A stretch of DNA of 64,000 nt, taken from assembly GCA_964422035.1 (NCBI GenBank), contig CAYQZQ010000001.1, positions 50,528 through 114,527 on the forward strand. Direction: 5' to 3'. The DNA comes from an uncultured Pseudomonadales bacterium. Lineage in GTDB: Bacteria > Patescibacteriota > Microgenomatia > UBA1400 > Chazhemtobacteraceae. Made by a program: the position numbers and the translations under genes. The notes under the pieces were generated by a model that saw only the letters and a program-made list of their open reading frames with translations, was not told the DNA's origin and did not search any database. Below are positions 45,141-59,920 of this stretch, piece by piece. How positions within the stretch are numbered: the stretch's first letter is position 1; every line of letters begins with the position of its first letter.

Positions 45141-45148
45141 AACTATTA

Positions 45149-45718
45149 ATGAGATTAAAAGAGTTAGAAGACAAGCTGGAGTATCCGATTTTTAGTTCAA
45201 ATCAGGTTGAAAGGATGTTTGTTGAGGAAGAGAATAATAGTATAAATATTCAGCTCTCCCGTTGGGAAAAGAGAGGGGAGCTGGTGCGGTTAAAAAGAGG
45301 GATATATAAGCTGGCGGATAGGGAAGTGGAGGAGATGGTAGTGGCGAGTGTTATGTATAGGCCTTCTTATGTAAGCTTGGAGACGGCTTTGCATTATCAG
45401 GGGGTGATACCGGAGGTGGTGAATATGATTACCAGTGTGACAACGATTACCTCAAAAGAGTTTGAAAACCAGATGGGGGTTTTTGTATACAGCAAACTTA
45501 AAAAAGAGCTTTATTTTGGTTTTAAGAAAGTGAAGGATAGTAAAAGTGGCATGTACTACCAGATAGCCGAGCCGGAGAAGGCTTTATTGGACTGGATTTA
45601 CGTGAAGGGAGTAAAAGACTTGCAGGCAAGCAGAGTAGATAGAAGTCTTTTGGAGGAGGAAAAGTTGTCCAGGTGGGCTGAAAAGTACCCGGACTGGGTG
45701 GGGGAGGTAATTGATTAA
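45149..45718 (+). CDS. abiEi: AbiEi-family antitoxin/regulator (second copy)
   Basis: RLKRGIYKL...VMYRPSYVSLETALHYQGVIPE is the AbiEi N-terminal domain signature; upstream of AbiEii-2. Confidence 0.75.
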   Translation: MRLKELEDKLEYPIFSSNQVERMFVEEENNSINIQLSRWEKRGELVRLKRGIYKLADREVEEMVVASVMYRPSYVSLETALHYQGVIPEVVNMITSVTTITSKEFENQMGVFVYSKLKKELYFGFKKVKDSKSGMYYQIAEPEKALLDWIYVKGVKDLQASRVDRSLLEEEKLSRWAEKYPDWVGEVID

Positions 45719-45730
45719 TTTAATAATAAA

Positions 45731-46513
45731 ATGAATAATTTAATAACCAACTTTGATCAGATCTTGCAGATGGCGGACGATCAGGGAGTGCCTTTAAAAA
45801 AGCGGGGTGTTTTAAGGGAGTATCTGCAAAGTAAATTTCTGGCAGAGTTTTATGGTTTGAAAAAGGCTAGCAAGATGTCGTTTGTGGGCGGGACGAGCCT
45901 GAGGTTTTTGGAAGGACTGCCTAGATTTTCAGAAGATCTGGATTTTGACAATTTGGGTTTAAGTGATGACCAGGTAGAAGAGTTGGTGGAGGAAGTGGTG
46001 GGTAGTTTTGAGGCGGAGAATATAGATTTGGAACTTAAAAAAACGATAAGGGAGCACAAGAAGTATTTTGAATTAAGGTTTCCCAAGATACTTTATCAGC
46101 TGGGGATATCCTCACATGCAAAGGAGAAGATGATGATTAAGATTGACTATGCCCGTCACTGGCGGGGGCAAAAGACCAGGTCGGTTTTGTTTTCGAAGTA
46201 CGGGTTTATTGAGCAGATAGTCAGCAATCAGTTGGATCAGATTTTGGTGCAAAAGATAGCGGCTTATGTGGGGCGTAGGCAAGTGCAGCCGAGAGATATG
46301 TATGACATAGTCTGGTTGTATGCTCGGGGAGTAAGACTCGATAGGGAGTTTATGAAGGAAAATGGAAAAACAGAGCTGATAGAAAAGGCTCGAGAAAGGT
46401 TTGAAGAAAAGGGAGTTTCTCAGGCTGACAAAAGAAGACTGAGACCCTTTTTATTCAAAGAAGGTGAGGTGGATAAGATAGAGTTGTTAGGTGAAGTTTT
46501 GTCTAAGTTGTAA
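45731..46513 (+). CDS. abiEii: AbiEii/AbiGii-family nucleotidyltransferase toxin (second copy)
   Basis: NTase motif FVGGTSLRFLEGLPRFSEDLDFD; 260 aa. Confidence 0.8.
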   Translation: MNNLITNFDQILQMADDQGVPLKKRGVLREYLQSKFLAEFYGLKKASKMSFVGGTSLRFLEGLPRFSEDLDFDNLGLSDDQVEELVEEVVGSFEAENIDLELKKTIREHKKYFELRFPKILYQLGISSHAKEKMMIKIDYARHWRGQKTRSVLFSKYGFIEQIVSNQLDQILVQKIAAYVGRRQVQPRDMYDIVWLYARGVRLDREFMKENGKTELIEKARERFEEKGVSQADKRRLRPFLFKEGEVDKIELLGEVLSKL

Positions 46514-46533: not shown

Positions 46534-47025
46534 ATGCAGATAAATTTTTACCCCGATTGTGACAGGAAAGAGGTGGAGACGGTCACCGAAGAATACAAAA
46601 ACTTGTGGGAAGAGAAAGGAGAGTTGATAGAAAAAAGTGTGGAAGAGGTGTCAGGCTTAAAATTTAAAGAAAAGTATATTAATGCAGTGGTCTATCGGTC
46701 TAGTCTGGTTCCACGCTCTTTTCCCTTGAGCCTGCAGGCTATTATATCGGAGGAGGATAAATTGGGGCTATTGGTACATGAGTTGATTCATAGGCTGTTG
46801 TCGGGGAATGATGTTAAGATTGAATATGAAATACATAAAGTGGTGGATTTGATCTTATTTGATGTTTGGGAGAAAGTGGGGGGTGAGGGGTTTGCTCAAA
46901 GAATGGTAGAGAAGGAGAAGAGTTTTGATAACAAGGCATATAAACGGGCCTGGGAGTGGGCTTTGAAGTTGAGTAAGGAAGAGAGGAGTAAAAAGTTTAA
47001 AGAAGTGTTGGGAAATAGCAGTTGA
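46534..47025 (+). CDS. Small HExxH-motif protein (putative minimal zinc metallopeptidase-like)
   Basis: LLVHELIHRLL with downstream Glu/His (EYEIH); 163 aa; no family assigned. Confidence 0.3.
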   Translation: MQINFYPDCDRKEVETVTEEYKNLWEEKGELIEKSVEEVSGLKFKEKYINAVVYRSSLVPRSFPLSLQAIISEEDKLGLLVHELIHRLLSGNDVKIEYEIHKVVDLILFDVWEKVGGEGFAQRMVEKEKSFDNKAYKRAWEWALKLSKEERSKKFKEVLGNSS

Positions 47026-47867
47026 AAGTAGAAAGGGTGAGGACTAAAAATGAAATAGAAGAGAGGTTAAGTAAGAAATTGAGGTACGGATATGAGATGT
47101 ATAATCAAGATATGGCAGAAAAAATTGATTATGAAAAGTTCTATGAAAGAGTGGGAGAGGAAATTGGTTGGGATTTTAGCGAGTTGAAGGTGGAAAAAGA
47201 GGAGAGAAAGTGGAATCTTTATGAAAAGGCTATAAAAAAAGTAGAAGATAGGGGAGAGTTACTTGATATCGGATGCGGAGGAGGCAAGAAGATATTAAAA
47301 GTGGCGGATGCCTTTGACAAAGTTGTAGGAATTGATAGCTCTAAGGCGATGATTAAAAAAGCTAAACAAAATCTTAAAGAGGCTGGAAAAGAGGATGTTG
47401 AGTTTAAGTTGATGGATGCTAAGAGTTTAGAGTTTGAAGATGAAAGTTTTATGGTGATTACTTGTAGACATGCCCCTTTTGAGGCTGATCAGGTTTACCG
47501 GGCTTTGAAAAATGGAGGCTTGTTTATAACTCAGCAAGTATCGTTGGGAGATAAGAGAAATATTAAGGAGGTGTTTGGAAGGGGGCAGGGATGGGGAGAG
47601 GAAGAGGGAAGTTTCAAAAAGAGGTTGTTAAATGAGCTAGAGGAGGCAGGATTTGAGGATATAGAGGTAGATGAGTATGAAGTGGATGAGTTCTATAAAG
47701 AAGCTGAGGACGTAATATTTTTATTAAAACATACTCCAATAGTTGTGGATTTTGGGAAAAAGGAAGGTGATTTTGATAAGCTGGAGAAGTTTATTGAGGA
47801 AAATAAGGAAGAGAGAGGGATTAGAACAACATCAAAACGGTTTATGTTAAGTGGGAGGAAGAGATAG
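47022..47867 (+). CDS. Class I SAM-dependent methyltransferase
   Basis: Motif I LLDIGCGGGKK; acidic post-I VVGIDSS; motif II/III (FMVITCRHAP...LKNGGLF). Confidence 0.75.
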   Translation: MKVERVRTKNEIEERLSKKLRYGYEMYNQDMAEKIDYEKFYERVGEEIGWDFSELKVEKEERKWNLYEKAIKKVEDRGELLDIGCGGGKKILKVADAFDKVVGIDSSKAMIKKAKQNLKEAGKEDVEFKLMDAKSLEFEDESFMVITCRHAPFEADQVYRALKNGGLFITQQVSLGDKRNIKEVFGRGQGWGEEEGSFKKRLLNELEEAGFEDIEVDEYEVDEFYKEAEDVIFLLKHTPIVVDFGKKEGDFDKLEKFIEENKEERGIRTTSKRFMLSGRKR

Positions 47868-47903: not shown

Positions 47904-48542
47904 TTATTGATTAAGATATTGATTGAAGTTCTTATAAGAAGGCTCAAAATAAAGTCGAGTAAAGATATGGCTAAATTCTTCCTGGTTGGGTTTGGTCTTT
48001 TTAATTTCTTCAAGAAGTTTGAGAAATGTATCTTGGGGAAAGTTATCAAGCAGGATTTTGACTGCCCAGCCGGCTTCAGAATAGATTTCTTTACCTGGCT
48101 TGTTAAAAAAGTCTAAGGACTTAGTTAGTTTTTCAGGCTGGTCTTTCCATTTAAGTTGACCGGATAGGTAGGTGGCGATACCCTCATCTAGCCATCGAGG
48201 CTGGGTGTAGTTGTCGGTTAAGACATAATAAAAGCAATGAGTTAGCTCATGTTTTAGAAGGGCGGCGTATTTGTCTTGTGAATAAGAATGACAACTCTCA
48301 GTTTCGAAGTTTTCTTTATCTAAAAGATAAACGGTGGGGGGAGCAAAAGATGTCCAACCTATGACCCAGTCATCTGTTTTGCGGTCTTTTAATAGATCAA
48401 TGGTTTGGCGATTAGGGACAAGAAAGACTTGAGGTAGGTGATGCTTCCAGCCCAGCTTGAAGAATTGATTTAAGTCTTTGATGGCTTGTTGGTAGGTTTT
48501 TTGCAGTTGTGGGTCTGATAGGGGTTGGAGTTTGTAGAGCAT
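47904..48542 (-). CDS. Gluzincin-type (HExxH...E) putative metallopeptidase, peptidase-MA-like
   Basis: HELTHCFYYV...(18 aa)...EGIATYL is the HEXXH-x18-E gluzincin signature. The ORF-track N-terminal extension (to 48788) overlaps the MTase gene and is probably not translated; the ATG at 48542 (MLYKLQP...) is used here. Confidence 0.45.
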   Translation of the reverse strand: MLYKLQPLSDPQLQKTYQQAIKDLNQFFKLGWKHHLPQVFLVPNRQTIDLLKDRKTDDWVIGWTSFAPPTVYLLDKENFETESCHSYSQDKYAALLKHELTHCFYYVLTDNYTQPRWLDEGIATYLSGQLKWKDQPEKLTKSLDFFNKPGKEIYSEAGWAVKILLDNFPQDTFLKLLEEIKKTKPNQEEFSHIFTRLYFEPSYKNFNQYLNQ

Positions 48543-48583
48543 AGGCTGATTATATAAGAAAAGAGGTTGAGTATAATAAAAAT

Positions 48584-49396
48584 ATGAGTAAGGTTTGGGA
48601 TGAGTTATATAACAAGCAGGGAAAAAAGTATGTAAGCCGGCTGGATGGAGTTGGTAAGCTGGCTGATTTTTGGCAGGAAGAAGAGGTGAAGAATGTATTG
48701 GATGTGGGCTGTGGGAGTGGTAAACATCTGCTAAAGCTAGTTGAAGCAGGATTCGAGGTGACAGGCTTTGATGTCTCCCAGGAGGCAATTAGGTTAGCCA
48801 AAGAGCGCTTCAAAGCAGCAGGAGAAAGGGGAGAGTTTAAGAGGGCTTCGATGTATGAGAGCTGGCCTTATGAGGATAATAGCTTTGGAGCGGTGATGGC
48901 GCTGCGATCTTTTAATCATGGTAACAGGAAACAAATCAGAGAAGCTATTGTGGAGATAAAGAGAGTACTGAAACCGCAGGGTTGGTTTTATATGTCGGTA
49001 TTAAAGATACCAGAAAAGCAGATTAAGACAGACAGGGGGGAAACTACCTTGAATAACTTGCCGGTTAAGATGATTGAGCCACGCACCTATGTACCTTTGG
49101 AGGGGAAAGAGAAGGGTCAGGTTCATTTTATCTTCAACGAGCAGATTCTAAGAGAGGATTTTGAGGATTTTAAGATCGAGGATTTGTGGGTAGAGTACGG
49201 AGAAAAGCAGTGGGAAAAGTATTGGTGTTTATTGGTGAAAAATAGGCAAGCTGGAGAGAAAAAATACAGTCGGAGTTTGAGTAAACTGCAACAAGCGATG
49301 CAAGAGTCAGGAATCAGTGAGGACGAGCTTCAGAAAGCAGGAGAGAAGATTAGAAAGAAGTTAGTCAAGGAGAAAGGTCTTAAGGTTTTGGATTAA
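48584..49396 (+). CDS. Class I SAM-dependent methyltransferase (paralogue A of a three-member family in this window)
   Basis: VLDVGCGSGKHL motif I; C-terminal block ...LRSFNHG...LKPQGWFYM...PRTYVPLEGKEKGQVHFIFN...EDLWVEYGEKQWEKYWCLLVKN shared with the ORFs at 57632 and 56267. Confidence 0.75.
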   Translation: MSKVWDELYNKQGKKYVSRLDGVGKLADFWQEEEVKNVLDVGCGSGKHLLKLVEAGFEVTGFDVSQEAIRLAKERFKAAGERGEFKRASMYESWPYEDNSFGAVMALRSFNHGNRKQIREAIVEIKRVLKPQGWFYMSVLKIPEKQIKTDRGETTLNNLPVKMIEPRTYVPLEGKEKGQVHFIFNEQILREDFEDFKIEDLWVEYGEKQWEKYWCLLVKNRQAGEKKYSRSLSKLQQAMQESGISEDELQKAGEKIRKKLVKEKGLKVLD

Positions 49397-52703: not shown

Positions 52704-53636
52704 TTAGGAAAGTTGTTTGTGGGTGATTTTGATGACTTTTTTGAGTTGGCCGTCTAGGATGTCACCCAGTTGGTGCCAACTTTGATTTATTCTGTGGTCG
52801 GTGACGCGGTTTTGAGGAAAGTTGTAGGTGCGGATTTTTTCAGCTCTATCGCCGGTGCCAACAGCCTGAGAACGGGTTTTTTTAAGTTTTTGCTGTTGTT
52901 CTTGTTGTTTTTTGTTCCAGAGGATTTGGCGTAGGCGCTCTAGAGCAATTTCCCGGTTTCTTTGCTGGGTTCTTTCCTGCCTGACAGAGACAACTTCGCC
53001 GCTTGGTTTGTGGGTGAGGCGAACAGCGGTGGCTACTTTGTTGACGTTTTGGCCGCCTGGTCCGCCGGAGCGGGAGAAGTTCCATTCTAGCTCAGAGTCT
53101 TTGAGTTCTACTTGTTGGGGGTTGATTTCTGGAAGTACGGCAACGGTAGCGGTTGAGGTATGTATACGTCCTTGCGACTCTGTTTGGGGGACTCGTTGTA
53201 CGCGATGGACGCCAGCTTCGTGTTTAAAGGTTCCGTAAGGGCCCAGAGACCAGTCTTTGGGGTTGCCTGAGACTTTGATAACTCCATTATCAATGAGTTG
53301 AACTTTAAAACCGATTGATCGAGCAAAGCGGGTGTACATTTGTTGGAGATCTTCAGCGAAAAGCTTGGCTTCATCACCACCGGCAGCACCTTTGATCTCG
53401 ATGGTGGCAGGTTTGTCATCAAAGCTGGCTTGAGCTTGTTTTTTTTGTTTGCTTTTGAGGGATTTTTGAATATCTTTGAGAGATTTTTGCAGAACTTGTT
53501 TTTGTTGTTTAAGTTGGGAAATTTCTTGTTGGGCGAGATTTTTGAGGGATTTGTCTTCTAAAAGCTGAGTGTTTTCTTTGATTTTTTCCTCTACCTGATT
53601 GATCTGTTTTTTAAGATAGTCTAGTTGGTTGGACAT
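52704..53636 (-). CDS. prfA: Peptide chain release factor 1
   Basis: RF1 tripeptide motif PQT (PxT) in RVQRVPQTESQGRIHTS; GGQ motif SGGPGGQNVNKVATAVRLTH; downstream of rpmE as in many bacteria. Confidence 0.85.
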   Translation of the reverse strand: MSNQLDYLKKQINQVEEKIKENTQLLEDKSLKNLAQQEISQLKQQKQVLQKSLKDIQKSLKSKQKKQAQASFDDKPATIEIKGAAGGDEAKLFAEDLQQMYTRFARSIGFKVQLIDNGVIKVSGNPKDWSLGPYGTFKHEAGVHRVQRVPQTESQGRIHTSTATVAVLPEINPQQVELKDSELEWNFSRSGGPGGQNVNKVATAVRLTHKPSGEVVSVRQERTQQRNREIALERLRQILWNKKQQEQQQKLKKTRSQAVGTGDRAEKIRTYNFPQNRVTDHRINQSWHQLGDILDGQLKKVIKITHKQLS

Positions 53637-53669
53637 ATGTATAGTTTATACAAAAAAGAGGAGGAAGGT

Positions 53670-53984
53670 TTACTCTTTGCTCTCTTTGACCTGCTGTTGA
53701 AGCATGTCTTTTAGGGTCTTGGGTTGTTGGTCTTTGTCGGGTTGAGTCTTTTGTTCTTTTTTCTTATTTTTGCCTTGTTTTTTGGCAGCTTCCATTTTTT
53801 GACGGAATTTTTCTACACGTCCCTGGGTATCGATGTATTTAACTTCTCCGGTGAAGAAAGGGTGGCAAGCTGAGCAGATCTCAACGTTGATTTTCTCTTG
53901 AGTGGAGCCGGTGGTAAAAGTGTTGCCACAAGCACACTCTACTTTGGCATCTGAGTAGTATTTGGGATGTATTTTGGATTTCAT
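53670..53984 (-). CDS. rpmE: 50S ribosomal protein L31 (zinc-ribbon form)
   Basis: [10 protein letters not shown]...CACGNTF...[10 protein letters not shown]; C4 zinc ribbon; K-rich C-terminal extension. Confidence 0.9.
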
Positions 53985-54089
53985 AACAGAGTGTATTTTA
54001 ACATAGGTAGAGGCATGAAGCTAGTTATGGAAGGCTAGTTTGCTTTATATTTGTCCGAGAGAGTGGATTTTGTGTCACTTGTCACAGGT

Positions 54090-54118
54090 TTGACAACTAT
54101 AGGGTATTGTAGTAGAAT
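54090..54118 (+). promoter_or_regulatory. Sigma70-type promoter (TTGACA-17-TAGAAT) for the 54.1-58.3 kb cluster, preceded by a TGTCAC direct repeat
   Basis: TTGACA 54090-54095, TAGAAT 54113-54118. TGTCACTTGTCAC immediately upstream (54072-54084) is a possible operator. Confidence 0.45.
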
Positions 54119-54150
54119 CAAGGCTAATTATATATTATTGAAAGGGTAGA

Positions 54151-55236
54151 GTGATAACTAGTTTAACTTTATCTGATCTGAGGGACAAATATCAAATACC
54201 TGAGAATGATATAGTATTGCAGACTCTAAATATATGTGGAATTAAAGCTGCGATGGAACATAAAAGAGTGAGGTTGAGGTTGAGGGTTGAGGATTCGGGG
54301 AAGGAATATTTTTTGGCTATTTGTGTGAATACGCGGGAAACACCTTTTGTGTATAAGGATGGCTATATTTGGTTTGAGGAAAAAAAATGGGGAAAAGTTT
54401 TATCCTTGAAAAATGATACTTGTGATCAGACGTATTTGAGAAAAGGCGGCAAACACTTAACTTTAAACTCTAACTCTAGAAGTTTATGTAAGGGTTGCAG
54501 GTTTTGTGGGACTTATAGTTTGAAAGAAGAAGATATATCTAATTTTAATACTAAAGAAAAAGTGGTGGATCACATAAAAGAGGTTGTAATCGGCAAGAAC
54601 GGTATGGAAGATTTGTCTAATCTGGATTCGATCGGTGTTTGTACGGGGTGTTTTGTAGATGGTCAGGCAGCTGTAGAGCATATCATTATGTTAAATAAAG
54701 TTTTGTGCGAAGAATTTGGTTTTGAGGGAGAGGTTCAATATATTGGCTCTCAAATAATTGAGACAAAACAACTTGATAGGTTAAAGAGAGAGGGGATAGA
54801 TTTGGCTTTGTATTTAACAATAGAATGTTTTGAGCGTAGGAAAAAGTTTTTAAAGCCTGTGAAGGCATCTATTTCTTTGGAGGATGCTTATGAAGTGTTG
54901 GAATATGCTATGGAAAAAGAGTTTAACACCAGTTTTTTGTATATTTTAGGACTAGATTCGTTAAAATCAATTAGGAAATACTTTGAGTACTTTAAGCCGG
55001 TAATAACTCGTTTTCCATTGCTGAATCTAATGCAGAATTATGTACCGAACCATGAGAGCTTGAGAAACAAAAAGGCGGATAAGATAGATTATTATCTGAA
55101 AGCGAGGAAGTTGCTAGAAGAAATTTTTATAGATAGTAATTTTAGACCGAGGGATTGGGAGAATTATCGCTCTCCTTGGTATACTAGCTTTGCTGGAGAA
55201 AAATTAATAAAAACACCCTTATATGAATCCAAATAA
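54151..55236 (+). CDS. Hypothetical protein with a CxxCxxC cysteine cluster (possible Fe-S or radical-SAM-like enzyme)
   Basis: 361 aa; SLCKGCRFCGTY (C-x2-C-x2-C) plus GVCTGCF. Alternating beta/alpha pattern compatible with a TIM-barrel-type fold. No confident family. AT-rich. Confidence 0.45.
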   Translation: MITSLTLSDLRDKYQIPENDIVLQTLNICGIKAAMEHKRVRLRLRVEDSGKEYFLAICVNTRETPFVYKDGYIWFEEKKWGKVLSLKNDTCDQTYLRKGGKHLTLNSNSRSLCKGCRFCGTYSLKEEDISNFNTKEKVVDHIKEVVIGKNGMEDLSNLDSIGVCTGCFVDGQAAVEHIIMLNKVLCEEFGFEGEVQYIGSQIIETKQLDRLKREGIDLALYLTIECFERRKKFLKPVKASISLEDAYEVLEYAMEKEFNTSFLYILGLDSLKSIRKYFEYFKPVITRFPLLNLMQNYVPNHESLRNKKADKIDYYLKARKLLEEIFIDSNFRPRDWENYRSPWYTSFAGEKLIKTPLYESK

Positions 55237-55723
55237 AGCAAAAAAGTATTGGATGGCTTTGAAGGATATAGCGGGAATAGATTTTGCAGTTGGAGTTCCT
55301 TGTGGTGTTCAAAAATATTTGATTGAAGAGATTGAGAAAGAAGAATCGATTAAGAATATAACCACGGCGCGTGAATCAGAAGCGGTGGGAGTGGCTGCAG
55401 GATCATTTTTATCAGGAAAGACACCGTTAGTCTACCTACAAAATTCTGGATTATTGGACTCAATGAATGATGTAGGTTCTCTACTAATTTCTTATCAGAT
55501 CCCGATGCTGTTTTCAGTGACTTGGAGAGGCGCGCCGGGAGAGAGTGCACCACACCACTGGTATACAGGAAAGGCTACCAAGGATGTATTGAGGGCTTTT
55601 GAGATTCCTTTCGTAGTGCTCGATTTAAATGAGCCTAGTGAGGTTGTAAAGATAGCAAGTAGTTATGTTAAGAGAGGGCAATCAGTAATGATTTTAATAA
55701 TTAGAGAAAGATTTAATCAATGA
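55223..55723 (+). CDS. Thiamine-diphosphate enzyme, N-terminal (PYR) subunit, sulfopyruvate/phosphonopyruvate-decarboxylase alpha-like (ComD-like)
   Basis: 166 aa; pattern GIDFAVGVPCGVQKYL...ARESEAVGVAAGSFLSGK..LVYLQNSGL typical of split ComD/Ppd alpha subunits. Confidence 0.65.
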   Translation: MNPNKAKKYWMALKDIAGIDFAVGVPCGVQKYLIEEIEKEESIKNITTARESEAVGVAAGSFLSGKTPLVYLQNSGLLDSMNDVGSLLISYQIPMLFSVTWRGAPGESAPHHWYTGKATKDVLRAFEIPFVVLDLNEPSEVVKIASSYVKRGQSVMILIIRERFNQ

Positions 55724-56283
55724 AAAGGAAACAAGCAATTGAGATAATTGACAAGGTTTTAGGTGAAGGAGTGCCGATTATAAGCTCGACAGGGTTGATG
55801 AGTCGGCAGCTGTTTGACATGAATGATACGGTGAACCATTTTTATATGACAGGTTCAATGGGTTTGGCGGGAGCTATAGGTTTTGGTTTGGCATTAAATA
55901 GCAAACAAAAAATTGTTGTATTAGAAGGAGATGCTAGTTTATTGATGAATTTAGGAGTGATGACGACTATTTGTCGTTACAAACCAGAAAATTTAATTCA
56001 TATAGTTCTTGATAATCAAGCATATGCCTCGTGTAGTGAAGAAAAATCGGCCTCTTCAGTGATTGCTTTGGAAAAGTTGGCCAAGGTGGCGGGATACGAA
56101 GAGATTGTGAAGGTTTCTACAATTAAAAAATTGGAGAATACTCTGGAAATGGTGTTGGGTGAAAAAGGTCCAATATTTGTTTTGGTTGAAATTGATTTAG
56201 GAGGCAGGAGAGATTTGCCTAGACCAATAGATTTACCAGGAATAGCGAAGAGATTTAAAAAATATATTGAGAAAAATGAATAA
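55720..56283 (+). CDS. Thiamine-diphosphate enzyme, C-terminal (PP) subunit, ComE/Ppd beta-like
   Basis: 187 aa; TPP-binding GDG-x(25)-N-like motif (LEGDASLLMNLGVMTTICRYKPENLIHIVLDNQAY); overlaps the alpha gene by 4 nt. Confidence 0.65.
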   Translation: MKRKQAIEIIDKVLGEGVPIISSTGLMSRQLFDMNDTVNHFYMTGSMGLAGAIGFGLALNSKQKIVVLEGDASLLMNLGVMTTICRYKPENLIHIVLDNQAYASCSEEKSASSVIALEKLAKVAGYEEIVKVSTIKKLENTLEMVLGEKGPIFVLVEIDLGGRRDLPRPIDLPGIAKRFKKYIEKNE

Positions 56284-56923
56284 ATGGAACGAGATATATC
56301 AGAAAGGAGTAGAGGAGTATGAGTATTATGATCTTGAAGAACCACACGAAGATATTGAAAAAGTGATTGATTATTTTAAAAAAGGGGGAGTTAATAAGGT
56401 TTTGGATTTAGGCTGTGGAATAGGTAGAAATATGATTCCACTGGCGAAAGCAGGTTTTAAAATGACAGGGGTTGATTTGTCTGTTAAAGGAGTAGATCTG
56501 GCGAAGAAAAAAATTAAAGAGAACGGTCTGTCTGGGGAATTTGCAAGAGGAGATTTTCAAAAATTACCTTTTAAAGATAGAAAATTTGATGCCGTAGTGG
56601 CGGTACAAGTACTTCAACATGGAAGGGAAGATGAGATTAGAAAAGCAGTAGATGAGATTGAAAGAGTGCTTATTCCTAAAGGGGCAATCTTTATTACCTT
56701 GTCGGGTAGATATTCAAAGGGGAAAGTAAGATATTGTTTGGTAAAGACAGCAAAACGTGTTGGAGAGAGAACATATATTCCAATGAAAGGTAATGAAATA
56801 GGAGTACCTCATTTTATATATAACAAAGAGTGGATAAGGCGTCATTATCAGAATTTTTTGATTAATCAGTTCTGGAGAGATGATAAAGACTATTATTGTT
56901 TTTTAGCTAATAAAAATGAATAG
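56267..56923 (+). CDS. Class I SAM-dependent methyltransferase (paralogue B)
   Basis: VLDLGCGIGRN motif I; C-terminal PHFIYN / YYCFLANKN block shared with 48584 and 57632. Confidence 0.7.
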   Translation: MRKMNKWNEIYQKGVEEYEYYDLEEPHEDIEKVIDYFKKGGVNKVLDLGCGIGRNMIPLAKAGFKMTGVDLSVKGVDLAKKKIKENGLSGEFARGDFQKLPFKDRKFDAVVAVQVLQHGREDEIRKAVDEIERVLIPKGAIFITLSGRYSKGKVRYCLVKTAKRVGERTYIPMKGNEIGVPHFIYNKEWIRRHYQNFLINQFWRDDKDYYCFLANKNE

Positions 56924-57650
56924 AGAAAGAAATACCGTTAGAAGATATGATGAGATAGCAGAGCAATATGATAGTGATTGGCGAGGGGAGTTGGATGATG
57001 AACAGAAAGATAGGTTGGATATATTTATGAAGTTGCTAGGGGTCCCGCCTAAAGAGGTTCTCGATGCTGGTTGTGGAACTGGTAAGCATGCAGTGTATTT
57101 ATCGAGTAAGGGATTTCAAGTAACGGGCTTGGATTTGTCTAAGGGAATGTTGAAAAAGTTTCAAAATAAGGTGAAAAGACAAGAATTAAATGCAGGCTTG
57201 GTAATATCTGAGATGCAGAAATTGAGCTTGGAGAGTGAGAGTTTTGATGGAGTTTGGTCGTCAGTGGCTTTGGTGCATGTAGATCATGAAGAAAAAGAGA
57301 AAGTATTAGAAGAATTTAATAGAGTCTTGAAGCCTAAAGGTTTGTTGTATCTTAGAATTCAAAATTTATATGGAAAGAAGCATATTAAAAGGATGTTTCA
57401 ATCGTGGGTGAGTGATTTGGGTTATGATGATGATGGTAAATTTTATATGAAGCCAAAGCAGTGGAAAGAGATTTGGGCTAATCCGATTTGGGATAGGTGG
57501 AAGGAAGGCTATGCTAAGCTTGATAGTAGAGATTGGTATTTTATATCTAAACAAAGAATGTTAAAACAACTTGATAATAATGGGTTTGAGGTTAAAAAAG
57601 TAAATAGTGTGCTTGATCGTAGATTAAGTATTTGGGCAGTAAAAAAATGA
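56916..57650 (+). CDS. Class I SAM-dependent methyltransferase (UbiE/Tam-like)
   Basis: VLDAGCGTGKHAVYL motif I; FDGVWSSVALVHV; LKPKGLLYL. Confidence 0.75.
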   Translation: MNRERNTVRRYDEIAEQYDSDWRGELDDEQKDRLDIFMKLLGVPPKEVLDAGCGTGKHAVYLSSKGFQVTGLDLSKGMLKKFQNKVKRQELNAGLVISEMQKLSLESESFDGVWSSVALVHVDHEEKEKVLEEFNRVLKPKGLLYLRIQNLYGKKHIKRMFQSWVSDLGYDDDGKFYMKPKQWKEIWANPIWDRWKEGYAKLDSRDWYFISKQRMLKQLDNNGFEVKKVNSVLDRRLSIWAVKK

Positions 57651-58309
57651 GTAAAAGCTGGGACGAAATATATCAAAAAGAGGGCAGAAAATATGTAAGT
57701 AGATTGACTTATTTAGAAAAGCTGTCTAAATTTTGGAAGGAAAATAAGGTTAAGAGGGTGTTGGATGTGGGGTGTGGAGCAGGAGAACACCTGAGAAAAA
57801 TGAATGATTATGGATTTGAGGTAGCAGGAATGGATATATCTGAAAAGGCAGTGGATATAGCAAGAGATAAGTTTAAGAATAGTAAAGCTAGAAGTGATAT
57901 AAAGGTAGCTTCGATGCATAATGAGTGGCCTTTTGTGGATGAAAGCTTTGGAGGCGTAATGGCTTTGCGATCTTTCAATCACGGTTTTCTAAGAGAGATC
58001 AGGTTTGCTATTGAAGAGGTGAGAAGAATGTTAAAACCGGGAGGGTGGTTTTTTATGACGACCTTGATGATACCAGGAAGAAAGGTAGTGCAAGGAATAA
58101 CAACTTTAAATACCATGAAAGCAGTGATGATTAGACCCAGGACTTATGTTCCTTTGGAAGGGAAAGAAGTGGGGGTAGTACATTATATTTTTAATAAAAA
58201 GATTATTAGGCAGGAGTTGTCAGGTTTTGTTATTGAGGATCTGTGGGTAGATTATGGGGAAAAAGAATGGGAGAGATATTATTGTGTATTGGCCAAGAAG
58301 TTAGCGTAA
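57632..58309 (+). CDS. Class I SAM-dependent methyltransferase (paralogue C)
   Basis: VLDVGCGAGEHL; LRSFNHG...LKPGGWFFM...PRTYVPLEGKEVGVVHYIFN...EDLWVDYGEKEWERYYCVLAKK, collinear with the protein at 48584. Confidence 0.75.
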   Translation: MGSKKMSKSWDEIYQKEGRKYVSRLTYLEKLSKFWKENKVKRVLDVGCGAGEHLRKMNDYGFEVAGMDISEKAVDIARDKFKNSKARSDIKVASMHNEWPFVDESFGGVMALRSFNHGFLREIRFAIEEVRRMLKPGGWFFMTTLMIPGRKVVQGITTLNTMKAVMIRPRTYVPLEGKEVGVVHYIFNKKIIRQELSGFVIEDLWVDYGEKEWERYYCVLAKKLA

Positions 58310-58894
58310 GGAATCAAACCAACTATCAAGTTGTTGATAAAAGTCTGATTCAATTCCTACGTAAGGCATGTTTTTTTTCAACTCTTGAATAAATATTTGT
58401 CGTTGATTAATTGAGTGGTGAACAATAGGTTGATCATGAGGGACAATTGCAAGCTTAGTTTGTTGAATATTCTGACATGGTTTGTTGATGGGTAGATGGG
58501 CTTTTTCTAAGTCTGGATCCCAAGTAGCGTCGAGTAAGCAAGAGTGATCGTGAAATGATAGAGAAATACAGAGATGATACTGAAGAGGCATTTTTTTACT
58601 TAGTTTTTCTAGGGAAGGAGGGTAGTTTGCTGGCAACTCTTGCCAGTAAAAAGGAAAAGTAAGATATTTAACAGTCAGATTGTATTTTTCAAGCCATTCT
58701 CCTAAAAGATAGTGTTTATCTGTACAACCACCTTTTTGAAATTTGATAATGCTTTCTTTCCATGAAAGAGAAGAGGGAGGTGGGGTACCAAAAGGAATAT
58801 CTCTTACCTTTAAGTAGAGAGGTAGGATTTGTTGCTCTAAAGATTCAGACAGTTCAGGAGTACTGGTATAGCACTGAAACCTTTCCTTATTCAT
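58301..58894 (-). CDS. Transglutaminase-like superfamily protein (Cys-His-Asp papain-like core)
   Basis: Candidate Cys in QKGGCTDKHYLL, His in LQYHLCISL, Asp in LLDATWDP, in transglutaminase-like order. Confidence 0.4.
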   Translation of the reverse strand: MNKERFQCYTSTPELSESLEQQILPLYLKVRDIPFGTPPPSSLSWKESIIKFQKGGCTDKHYLLGEWLEKYNLTVKYLTFPFYWQELPANYPPSLEKLSKKMPLQYHLCISLSFHDHSCLLDATWDPDLEKAHLPINKPCQNIQQTKLAIVPHDQPIVHHSINQRQIFIQELKKNMPYVGIESDFYQQLDSWFDSLR

Positions 58895-59011
58895 ATACCC
58901 TGTATTATATATTATTGAGACTCTATGTGAAACTTTAAGGATAATGGAGGTTTAATATAAACAAAAACTTTTGATACAGATCAGATTGTGAGGAAAATTA
59001 GAAACTTTTAT

Positions 59012-59920
59012 TTATCGGCGTTTTTCTACGAGAAATACACCTAGGATGATGATTATGATAGCGATGATTTCAAGTGTTTTTATGTGTTCTGAGAGGAGGA
59101 GGTAGGCAGTGGGGACAGCAAAGAGGGGTTGTAAATAGGTAAAGACAGCGGCTTCTGAGGCTTCAATCTTTTCTTGGCCTTTTAGATATAAAGTTAAGCC
59201 AATAACTGAGCCGAAGATACCCATATATAGAGAAGCAATTAGGGGAGAGCGGGCGGATTGGGTGAAAAGAGTGGTGATTTGGTTGATGGGTGAGTGGCCG
59301 ACAAAAAGGCTGTATGAAGCGAAAACTAGAAGAGCTATCCAAAAACTGATGTGAGTGGTGACCCATTTGTTAAGTTTTTTGTAGTGTTTTTTAGCTAGGA
59401 GTAAGTAGGCAGCCATGGAGATGTTTTGCAGGAAAATGAGAATGTTGCCAAAAAGAGCACCGTTGAAGCCTTTTCTTATAACAGGCTCGATGACTAGTAG
59501 AATTGTACCGATGATGGCAATGAAAAGGCCAATTAACTCATTTTTTTCTTCTTTTTCTTTAAAGATAAAAATTCCGCCTATGGTAACAAAGATGGGCCAG
59601 GTGACGGCGATTAAAGTAGCTTCGATAGAGGTGGTGTGGTTTAGGCCGATGTAGAGTAGGGAAAGGGTAACAACGGTGCCTAAAAGTTCCAAAAGGACGA
59701 TGGTTATTAGTTGTTTGAAGGTAGGGGGATTTTTTTTGATAGCGATGATGCCGATGGGGAGGGAGAAGATTACAGCAAAGAAAAAGCGGGCTAGAAGGAA
59801 GGTAAGGGGAGTGAGCCCATTTAGAAAACCTAGTTTAATGATAGGAAAGGCGATACCCCAGAAAAAGGCATTGCCAACAAGCATAAGATAGGCTACAAGA
59901 CGATTAGGAGTTAGCTTCAT
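59012..59920 (-). CDS. EamA/DMT-superfamily transporter (10 TM)
   Basis: 302 aa; two EamA-like 5-TM repeats; hydrophobic throughout. Confidence 0.7.
   Translation of the reverse strand: MKLTPNRLVAYLMLVGNAFFWGIAFPIIKLGFLNGLTPLTFLLARFFFAVIFSLPIGIIAIKKNPPTFKQLITIVLLELLGTVVTLSLLYIGLNHTTSIEATLIAVTWPIFVTIGGIFIFKEKEEKNELIGLFIAIIGTILLVIEPVIRKGFNGALFGNILIFLQNISMAAYLLLAKKHYKKLNKWVTTHISFWIALLVFASYSLFVGHSPINQITTLFTQSARSPLIASLYMGIFGSVIGLTLYLKGQEKIEASEAAVFTYLQPLFAVPTAYLLLSEHIKTLEIIAIIIIILGVFLVEKRR

Follow-up and report, generated by a model that had tools for sequence, protein, structure and literature searches.

The window analyzed here, a 64,000-nucleotide (nt) stretch of contig CAYQZQ010000001.1 from an uncultured bacterium of the Patescibacteriota, contains between 54.1 and 58.95 kb an island of seven genes which we consider, with somewhat better than even confidence, to be a mobile and modular biosynthetic cassette, in which a radical step, a decarboxylation, methylation and an acyl or amide transfer would lead to a small methylated metabolite. 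Our confidence in any specific substrate is much lower than in this outline. The island encodes a 361-aa protein of the radical S-adenosylmethionine (SAM) type, a split thiamine diphosphate (TPP) decarboxylase, three SAM-dependent methyltransferases (MT1, MT2 and MT3) and a 197-aa protein with a conserved Cys-His-Asp set. Judged by its genes, it appears to be neither a coenzyme M nor a canonical phosphonate pathway. All domains come from known superfamilies; the radical-SAM subfamily and the decarboxylase subfamily, which is marked by an SCSEE loop, are without a curated model or a described function, and no description of the cassette or of this combination was found in the literature searched. 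The seven genes are the following:

54151 to 55236, plus strand: radical-SAM-fold enzyme, 361 aa, GTG start, assigned from Pfam and alignments
55223 to 55723, plus strand: alpha (PYR-domain) subunit of the TPP decarboxylase, 166 aa, TPP_enzyme_N
55720 to 56283, plus strand: beta (PP-domain) subunit of the TPP decarboxylase, 187 aa, TPP_enzyme_C, 4-nt ATGA overlap with the alpha gene
56267 to 56923, plus strand: class I SAM methyltransferase MT1, 218 aa, Methyltransf_25/11 with E 1e-24
56916 to 57650, plus strand: class I SAM methyltransferase MT2, 244 aa, assigned from Pfam
57632 to 58309, plus strand: class I SAM methyltransferase MT3, 225 aa, assigned from Pfam
58301 to 58894, minus strand: Cys-His-Asp protein, 197 aa, convergent with the operon, 9-nt overlap

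The 361-aa protein is a divergent enzyme of the radical-SAM fold. An N-terminal beta-rich domain of about 100 aa is followed by the radical-SAM core, in which the (beta/alpha) TIM-barrel fold is present, partially or fully, and several homologues exceed the Pfam Radical_SAM threshold in precomputed annotations. A preliminary description of this DNA, made from its letters alone, had named radical SAM among the hypotheses for this protein, and the core fold and the context of the cluster loop bear this out, though with a sub-threshold Pfam score. The loop, C113-x2-C116-x-F118-C119, is one residue shorter than the canonical CX3CX2C and lies in the conserved context N106-S-N-S-R-x-x-C113-x-G-C116-x-F118-C119; in the alignment of 118 homologues C116 and C119 are invariant and C113 is kept in at least 90%. 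While 175 full-length family members have CX2CX2C, 16 have CX3CX2C in the identical LN.N.R..C.G(x)C.FC context, and therefore the CX2CX2C motif appears to be the radical-SAM loop minus one residue, in which F118 provides the aromatic residue that normally precedes the third cysteine. The alignments thus give good evidence that the shortened loop would be the SAM-binding [4Fe-4S] site. The two cysteine motifs pointed out in the preliminary description fared differently, the C-x2-C-x2-C cluster being present and near-invariant, and the GVCTGC motif being conserved only in C167, which is part of T165-G-C167-F at the position of the usual 'GGE'. Also conserved are C91, Y264-I-L-G-L-D, which resembles GxIxGxxE, and eight invariant arginines or lysines (R39, R41, R97, R110, R230, K238, R319 and R340).

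The nearest folds of the 361-aa protein are enzymes acting on small molecules, including similarity to MqnE and viperin. In comparison with HydG, ThiH, NosL, MqnE, PylB, BioB and LipA it is only 9-16% identical, has CX2CX2C in place of CX3CX2C and TGCF in place of GGE, possesses the N-terminal beta domain of about 100 aa as a unique feature and carries no auxiliary-cluster motif. Neither the protein nor its actinomycete and Firmicute homologues match any NCBIfam model, and a profile search of the PDB gave chance matches only. Homologues numbered 134 in a search of 5.8 billion proteins, with hosts among the Nealsonbacteria, Nanoarchaeota, Aenigmatarchaeota, Woesearchaeota and Treponema lecithinolyticum, and the family is rare and patchily distributed, with 373 representatives at 50% identity in an exhaustive hidden Markov model search of 1.84 billion proteins. 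We collected 80 genomic loci with radical-SAM relatives (numbered with the prefix L below) together with metagenomic contexts and clustered all neighboring open reading frames (ORFs). Neighbors were counted within six genes in the 65 non-redundant loci with enough flank, which span the candidate phyla radiation (CPR), DPANN, Firmicutes, Treponema, actinomycetes and plasmids, and all fractions of 65 given below refer to this set.

Both subunits of the split enzyme exceed the Pfam gathering scores, alpha for TPP_enzyme_N and beta for TPP_enzyme_C, and their best NCBIfam matches are sulfopyruvate decarboxylase alpha and beta (ComD and ComE) and phosphonopyruvate decarboxylase (Ppd), which agrees with the ComDE/Ppd-type decarboxylase recognized previously. 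All of these matches are below the cut-offs: alpha reaches 114.9 bits against the ComD model TIGR03845 (cut-off 147.95), beta 142.8 bits against the ComE model TIGR03846 (cut-off 221.5), and alpha and beta 105.6 and 162.8 bits against the Ppd model TIGR03297 (cut-off 312.5). The nearest solved relative is RhiEF (PDB 9iz3), with E 8e-24 for beta against RhiF (9iz3_B) and E 1e-18 for alpha against RhiE (9iz3_A); RhiEF is the heteromeric phosphonopyruvate decarboxylase of the rhizocticin pathway (PMC12141560). The TPP cofactor motif GDAS...LDN and the catalytic Glu (E-x-E-A) are conserved, as are the alpha motifs GVPCG, E-x-E-A-x-G, QNSG and RG..GE..H. With RhiEF/Ppd and ComDE the enzyme shares the organization in two subunits of about 170 and 190 aa encoded by overlapping genes, the GVPC, QNSG and GD(G/A)S...LDN motifs and the catalytic Glu. 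It differs from them in that its subunits stay below every curated cut-off, in that its partner gene is a radical-SAM gene and not phosphoenolpyruvate (PEP) mutase or ComA-C, and in the loop Y-x-S-C-S-E-E, which in RhiF is H-E-S-T-G-G-Q.

This loop follows the Mg-binding LDN and reads Q-A-Y-A-S-C-S-E-E in the window and G-M-H-E-S-T-G-G-Q in RhiF. It is kept as SC(S/N)(E/G)E in about 110 of the 120 closest homologues. Three homologues of the SCSEE type were picked solely for their long contigs, and all three sit in four-gene units of TPP-alpha, TPP-beta, a 275-aa methyltransferase and a radical-SAM gene, which are bordered by integrase, restriction-modification or transposase genes. The subfamily adjoins a radical-SAM gene in every context examined, and the split enzyme can be placed from its sequence as a third subfamily beside ComDE and Ppd that is genetically tied to the radical-SAM family. 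The acidic loop would argue against an anionic sulfonate or phosphonate substituent on the substrate. The sub-cut-off scores and the replacement of STGGQ by SCSEE uphold the earlier view that the pathway is neither a canonical phosphonate nor a coenzyme M one, and the absence of a nearby PEP mutase was likewise confirmed, as the motif EDKx5NS does not occur in any of the six frames of the window. ComA/B/C and cysteate synthase were found neither in the island nor among the recurrent neighbor families of the 65 loci.

The three SAM methyltransferases were identified correctly before: MT1 to MT3 are class I enzymes matching Methyltransf_25/11 with E 1e-19 to 1e-25, with the motif VLDLGCG present. 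Among the methyltransferases of the Ppd-type cassette MT1 shows the widest conservation, with orthologs of 40-54% identity in L004, L010, L012, L014, L017, L025 and L034, and MT2 has orthologs of 34-41% identity in L004, L017 and L047. MT3 is paralogous to MT1 (35% identity) and to the gene at 48584-49393 (57% identity). The profile of MT1 retrieves generic small-molecule methyltransferases, with 72 bits for phosphoethanolamine N-methyltransferases and 47 bits for TehB. The 275-aa methyltransferase of relatives has its best solved match, at 126 bits, in HvrF of the pantaphos cluster, a protein highly homologous to trans-aconitate methyltransferase (Polidore et al., PMC7858074), and shows weak matches of the KsgA/Erm type which are confined to the SAM-binding part. 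Two extra class I methyltransferase genes are present in the window, at 47019-47864 and 48584-49393, the second of which overlaps a minus-strand ORF (47907-48788) with a weak Peptidase_MA match.

The 197-aa gene is a conserved member of the cassette. A Cys-His-Asp gene lies near the radical-SAM gene in L004, L011, L014, L017, L025, L047 and L049, and nine sequences share the invariant residues G55-x-C57, K60-H61, Y106-H107 and D122-A-T-W125. The protein has no match in Pfam, NCBIfam or PADLOC. In its AlphaFold2 model (pLDDT 86) the top Foldseek matches are arylamine N-acyl/acetyl-transferases (NATs), transglutaminase-like cysteine proteases, TglA and the CPR-C4 protease, all of them weak (E 2e-3, TM 0.33-0.41, 12-22% identity). 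The order and spacing of Cys, His and Asp is the same in NATs and transglutaminase-like proteases, and NATs differ in length, being about 270-290 aa. The model may represent a transglutaminase, NAT or papain-like fold, and the label 'transglutaminase-like' given to this protein previously is in accordance with the invariant residues and with these weak structural matches.

A comparison of gene order in other genomes, which had been proposed beforehand, showed that the arrangement recurs. The order in L017 is that of the window (radical SAM, TPP-alpha, TPP-beta, MT1, MT2, MT3 and the convergent Cys-His-Asp gene), and rearranged versions are present in Aenigmatarchaeota (L004/L018), in other archaea of the DPANN group (L047 and L049), in Falkowbacteria (L025) and in Saccharibacteria (L012 and L014). 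Some TPP enzyme was found near the radical-SAM gene in 47 of the 65 loci, and it is of two kinds, Ppd-like in 25 and phosphoketolase-like in 23. A methyltransferase accompanies the gene in 29/65, a HAD hydrolase in 25/65, GrpB in 20/65, a diadenylate cyclase (DAC)-like protein in 15/65, GGDEF and an enolase-superfamily protein in 11/65 each, a PHP phosphoesterase in 7/65, and a B12-radical-SAM protein and the Cys-His-Asp protein in 6/65 each. A nucleotidyltransferase or cyclase-like gene (PanS-like minimal DAC, GGDEF or GrpB) is present in 41/65, and either such a gene or a TPP enzyme in 62/65. These loci fit an invariant heart made of the radical-SAM enzyme, usually joined by a TPP enzyme and at least one methyltransferase. 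There are also four-gene minimal cassettes without DAC, GGDEF or GrpB. Beside one of these (L095, 10581-14270) stand two genes of the PRK/uridine-kinase family and a gene with a faint match to CYTH, the triphosphate tunnel metalloenzymes, which makes this a further neighborhood of nucleotide type. Some DPANN loci contain a conserved ORF of 332-335 aa (L005/L008, 7001-8011) that runs into the 5' end of the radical-SAM gene and for which Pfam, NCBIfam, PADLOC and the PDB gave no match.

The nucleotide-related partners are of several types. The partner of about 150 aa, encoded in L004, L013, L021, L023, L025, L026, L028, L047 and L049, is weak against the Pfam DAC model, and its profile matches PanS of the Panoptoo system (PDB 37jy) over the full length with E 3e-24 and 88 bits. 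PanS is a minimal diadenylate cyclase making 3'3'-cUA or c-di-AMP (bioRxiv 10.64898/2026.08.10.743927). The partner has DG(F/A) and G-x-R-Y-H where PanS has DGA and RHR, it is not present in the window, and it pairs with radical-SAM, TPP and methyltransferase genes and not with the S2TM-beta effector PanE; sometimes it forms part of a fusion protein, DAC-like domains being joined to MT1 in L012 and L014 and to TPP-beta in L017 and L011. A second DPANN clade of the partner has the DGA motif (hhalign alignment at 79%), and the partner in actinomycetes and Sorangium is a GGDEF relative (hhalign 97%). GrpB, which has a nucleotidyltransferase fold and to which no function was assigned in the papers found in the literature searched, forms one polypeptide with the radical-SAM enzyme in P0140, P0147 and P0152. 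Among the fusion set of P0140, P0147, P0152 and P0264 one protein of 1624 aa combines a radical-SAM-like region with a HATPase_c domain. The phosphatases of relatives are HAD, PHP and PTP, the PHP proteins being related to nucleoside-bisphosphate phosphatases. The B12-radical-SAM partner has its best match in the PhpK P-methyltransferase family, at 158 bits and far under the cut-off. NUDIX genes, a macrolide-type glycosyltransferase and an adenylation enzyme occur in some loci, MFS and ABC-2 exporters adjoin relatives, and in actinomycetes an enolase resembling acid-sugar dehydratases accompanies the cassette.

The seven-gene cassette was probably acquired horizontally. The genes of the island have a GC content of 0.33-0.39 and a GC at third codon positions (GC3) of 0.25-0.37, compared with 0.424 +/- 0.024 and 0.427 +/- 0.044 for the remaining 54 genes in the window, so that the AT-rich composition remarked on earlier holds for both GC and GC3. 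The EamA exporter gene downstream (59012-59920), to which the preliminary description had linked the cluster, has a host-like GC of 0.42, lies outside the low-GC block and is not conserved beside the cassette elsewhere, and was rejected as a cassette member. Relatives are carried by plasmids. The radical-SAM gene is present on plasmids of about 70-75 kb in 30 Clostridium perfringens records, where it is annotated as 'hypothetical' and where the order (L091, NZ_CP075989, 1069-9017) is HAD, adenylation-domain protein, radical SAM, phosphoketolase, PHP and methyltransferase; this plasmid cassette may be an undescribed metabolite cluster of the pathogen. On a plasmid of Mycobacterium intracellulare the order is GGDEF, radical SAM, enolase-like, HAD and phosphoketolase-like, an MFS transporter and a methyltransferase being encoded next to these genes, and the family is also found on Streptomyces and Nocardia plasmids. 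Searches of IMG/VR and of 50,697 phage records gave no copy of it.

In the scheme that we prefer the radical enzyme would use or produce a small poly-anionic compound, itself a 3-substituted 2-oxo acid or turning into one; a poly-anionic small molecule is suggested because eight arginines and lysines are invariant and the nearest folds are those of small-molecule enzymes. The TPP enzyme would then remove the carboxyl group and leave an aldehyde or an acyl-TPP intermediate, a role that in other lineages could be filled by the phosphoketolase/transketolase-like TPP enzyme, the methyltransferases would methylate the product (in the window up to three times), and the Cys-His-Asp protein may transfer or remove an acyl or amide group. 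A 2-oxo-acid or keto intermediate is indicated by the mutual substitution of two unrelated TPP types and by the actinomycete enolase, and a phosphorylated or nucleotide-linked substrate by the invariant Arg/Lys residues together with the phosphatases and nucleotidyltransferase partners. The MFS/ABC-2 transporters adjoining relatives, and the adenylation enzyme and glycosyltransferase of some loci, are of the kind usual for exported secondary metabolites and point to an exported end product. The gene content on which the earlier picture of a small-molecule pathway was built has stood. That picture did not include the relatives' genes resembling cyclic-dinucleotide synthases, GGDEF and GrpB, or the exchange for a phosphoketolase, which change the possible pathway, and its alternative of a modification system found no support.

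Several observations weigh against the cassette being a biosynthetic unit of this kind. The 361-aa protein scores 27.6 bits against Pfam Radical_SAM (PF04055), under the gathering score of 29.5. Its fourth conserved cysteine, C167, stands at the usual site of SAM amino-group binding, and classical SAM cleavage is therefore uncertain. The methyltransferases match generic models only, and the order of the steps and the 2-oxo-acid intermediate are deduced from the family membership of the enzymes. In 13 of the 65 loci GrpB is present without any TPP enzyme, so the TPP step is not universal, and the window is without the cyclase or nucleotidyltransferase and the phosphatase typical of many relatives, which means that the nucleotide link may not apply here. 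Finally, the island carries the extreme G-over-C strand skew of its host, and thus it is not a recent import.

The diverse partners of the radical-SAM gene could be attributed, possibly though in our opinion not probably, to a nucleotide-centred system, in which the radical-SAM enzyme would modify a nucleotide, a cyclic dinucleotide or a SAM-derived adenosine and tailoring by the TPP enzyme, the methyltransferases and phosphatases would give a nucleoside-type antimetabolite or signal, the window being a reduced version that has lost the cyclase. As one possibility, a 5'-deoxyadenosyl radical could add to an enolpyruvyl acceptor, as in MqnE, to give an adenosyl 2-oxo acid. The 41 loci with a minimal DAC, GGDEF or GrpB beside the radical-SAM gene, the GrpB-radical-SAM fusions and the DAC-like fusions to MT1 and TPP-beta are in accordance with such a system, as are the PHP proteins related to nucleoside-bisphosphate phosphatases, the HAD and NUDIX proteins and the macrolide-type glycosyltransferase of relatives and the fold similarity to MqnE and viperin. 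However, the window encodes no DAC, GGDEF or GrpB domain (a tblastn search for a DAC-like gene in it gave nothing below E 0.2), and neither do the four-gene minimal cassettes. No membrane or nuclease effector is present, the radical-SAM, TPP and Cys-His-Asp proteins have no PADLOC match, and phage copies are missing. The KsgA/Erm likeness of the 275-aa methyltransferase, which could be counted in favor, covers only the SAM-binding part of a protein whose best solved match is HvrF. An anti-phage defence of the CBASS or Panoptoo type was rejected and is kept only as a weak rival, since there is no synthase in the window, no PADLOC match and no copy in the phage collections; no S2TM-beta or other known effector was found in the examined loci of relatives.

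The known functions of the nearest TPP relatives, phosphonopyruvate and sulfopyruvate decarboxylases, raise the question of a PEP-mutase-independent route to a C-P, C-S or C-As bond, in which the radical-SAM enzyme would create this bond and so yield a 3-substituted pyruvate, decarboxylation by the Ppd/ComDE-like enzyme would pull the reaction and the methyltransferases would finish the product. We consider this very doubtful. Phosphonate pathways often include nucleotidyl activation and HAD enzymes, and C-As bonds are known to be made by the radical-SAM enzymes ArsL and ArsS; the HvrF match (126 bits) of the relatives' 275-aa methyltransferase and the match of the B12-radical-SAM partner to PhpK (158 bits, far under the cut-off) point in the same direction. 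Phosphonate clusters such as the pantaphos HiVir cluster with HvrF, or those with B12 radical-SAM methylases of the Fom3/PhpK type, likewise combine a Ppd-type decarboxylase with methyltransferases, but the methyltransferases of the window belong to a different type and PEP mutase is absent from it. In one locus, L076, from an Actinophytocola metagenome-assembled genome (762-3229 and 7953-13784), the radical-SAM gene is preceded, at a distance of 5 kb, by a Ppd gene and a gene in which cytidylyltransferase and PEP mutase (EDKEGLKQNS) are fused, and genes for enolase-like, HAD and phosphoketolase-like proteins come after it. This adjacency is the sole exception among the 65 loci, the PEP mutase motif being absent from the other 64, and the radical-SAM gene in it is frameshifted. 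Furthermore, the acidic SCSEE that replaces STGGQ of RhiF would be unexpected for phosphonate or sulfonate binding, in 23 loci the place of the decarboxylase is taken by a phosphoketolase-like enzyme, and no genes for uptake or handling of phosphite, sulfite or arsenite were seen. We know of no radical formation of a C-P bond.

In a wider form, which is quite improbable, the pair of radical-SAM and TPP enzymes could be a new entry to 3-substituted-pyruvate chemistry, with a radical C-P, C-S, C-As or C-C(adenosyl) bond formed on pyruvate or PEP and decarboxylation pulling the reaction forward. If true, this would parallel the opening two steps of phosphonate synthesis without needing PEP mutase, and would be used by CPR and DPANN symbionts and carried on plasmids of pathogens.

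Two further explanations deserve very little credence. The sizes of the subunits, their 4-nt gene overlap and the top NCBIfam families are those of ComD/ComE, and our inspection covered 64 kb of the 725-kb genome, so the genes could be a fragment of an ordinary coenzyme M or 2-aminoethylphosphonate pathway, with true ComDE/Ppd orthologs here and ComA-C, or PEP mutase and an aminotransferase, elsewhere; scores well under the equivalog cut-offs, the diagnostic change of the loop, the radical-SAM gene alongside in every context examined, the absence of the PEP-mutase motif from the window and from all 65 loci but L076, and a host range (CPR, DPANN, Firmicutes plasmids) unlike that of coenzyme M users make this scarcely believable. 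Equally remote is the TPP enzyme as a dedicated donor of electrons or acyl groups, its enamine or acetyl-TPP reducing the Fe-S cluster or giving acetyl to the NAT-like protein: CPR and DPANN genomes are often without flavodoxin-type reductants, two unrelated TPP types, both of which could in principle reach acetyl-TPP by the phosphoketolase mechanism, interchange beside the same radical-SAM family, and the best fold matches of the Cys-His-Asp protein are acetyl/acyl transferases, but this is conjecture throughout, no Fe-S motif occurs in the TPP subunits, 13 loci have no TPP enzyme and the Cys-His-Asp gene is found in only 6 of the 65.

The cassette defines two subfamilies, a short-loop radical-SAM one and a Ppd/ComDE-like one with a remodelled active-site loop which is genetically locked to the first, and its core is found in hosts with almost no biosynthetic capacity (CPR, DPANN, Saccharibacteria) as well as in gut Firmicutes and oral Treponema. 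Identification of the product would add a new radical reaction, could explain minimal DAC, GGDEF and GrpB domains outside signalling, and might bring to light a metabolite of importance for symbiosis or virulence.

The cluster was first described as six co-directional genes behind a promoter with a TGTCAC repeat. All six plus-strand ORFs (54151-58309) are present as located then, packed with overlaps of 4-19 nt, but with the convergent 197-aa gene (58301-58894) the unit comprises seven. The sites in front of these genes are the following:

54073 to 54085, plus strand: direct repeat TGTCAC-T-TGTCAC, read from the sequence, immediately 5' of the -35 box
54090 to 54118, plus strand: predicted sigma-70-type promoter TTGACA-17 nt-TAGAAT, 11 of 12 consensus matches
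58904 to 58931, minus strand: promoter-like site TTCACA-16 nt-TATAAT 5' of the 197-aa gene, 11 of 12 matches

The predicted promoter of the operon, which supports the earlier reading, is the best plus-strand site within 53600-59100 and lies 33 nt 5' of the GTG of the first gene. The repeat is a possible candidate operator. It has a single exact copy in the 64-kb window, where the count of TGTCAC repeats with up to two mismatches is not above chance, and with one occurrence only it was rejected as a recurrent operator. No RNA element or riboswitch of Rfam matches within 53600-59100, even at E <= 1.

The plus strand of the window consists of 29.9% G, 11.8% C, 31.3% A and 27.0% T. Its mean GC skew is +0.45 over the 49 plus-strand genes and +0.39 over the 12 minus-strand genes, and since it is similar in both it is independent of the coding strand; to our knowledge, it far exceeds the replication skews of bacterial genomes. 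Minus-strand genes encode proteins (release factor, L31, HisRS) with a high content of Q, P, H and T, and in plus-strand proteins G, E, V and D are abundant. At 45143-46510, 8 kb 5' of the cassette, the window also carries a type IV toxin-antitoxin pair composed of an AbiEi antitoxin and an AbiEii nucleotidyltransferase toxin.

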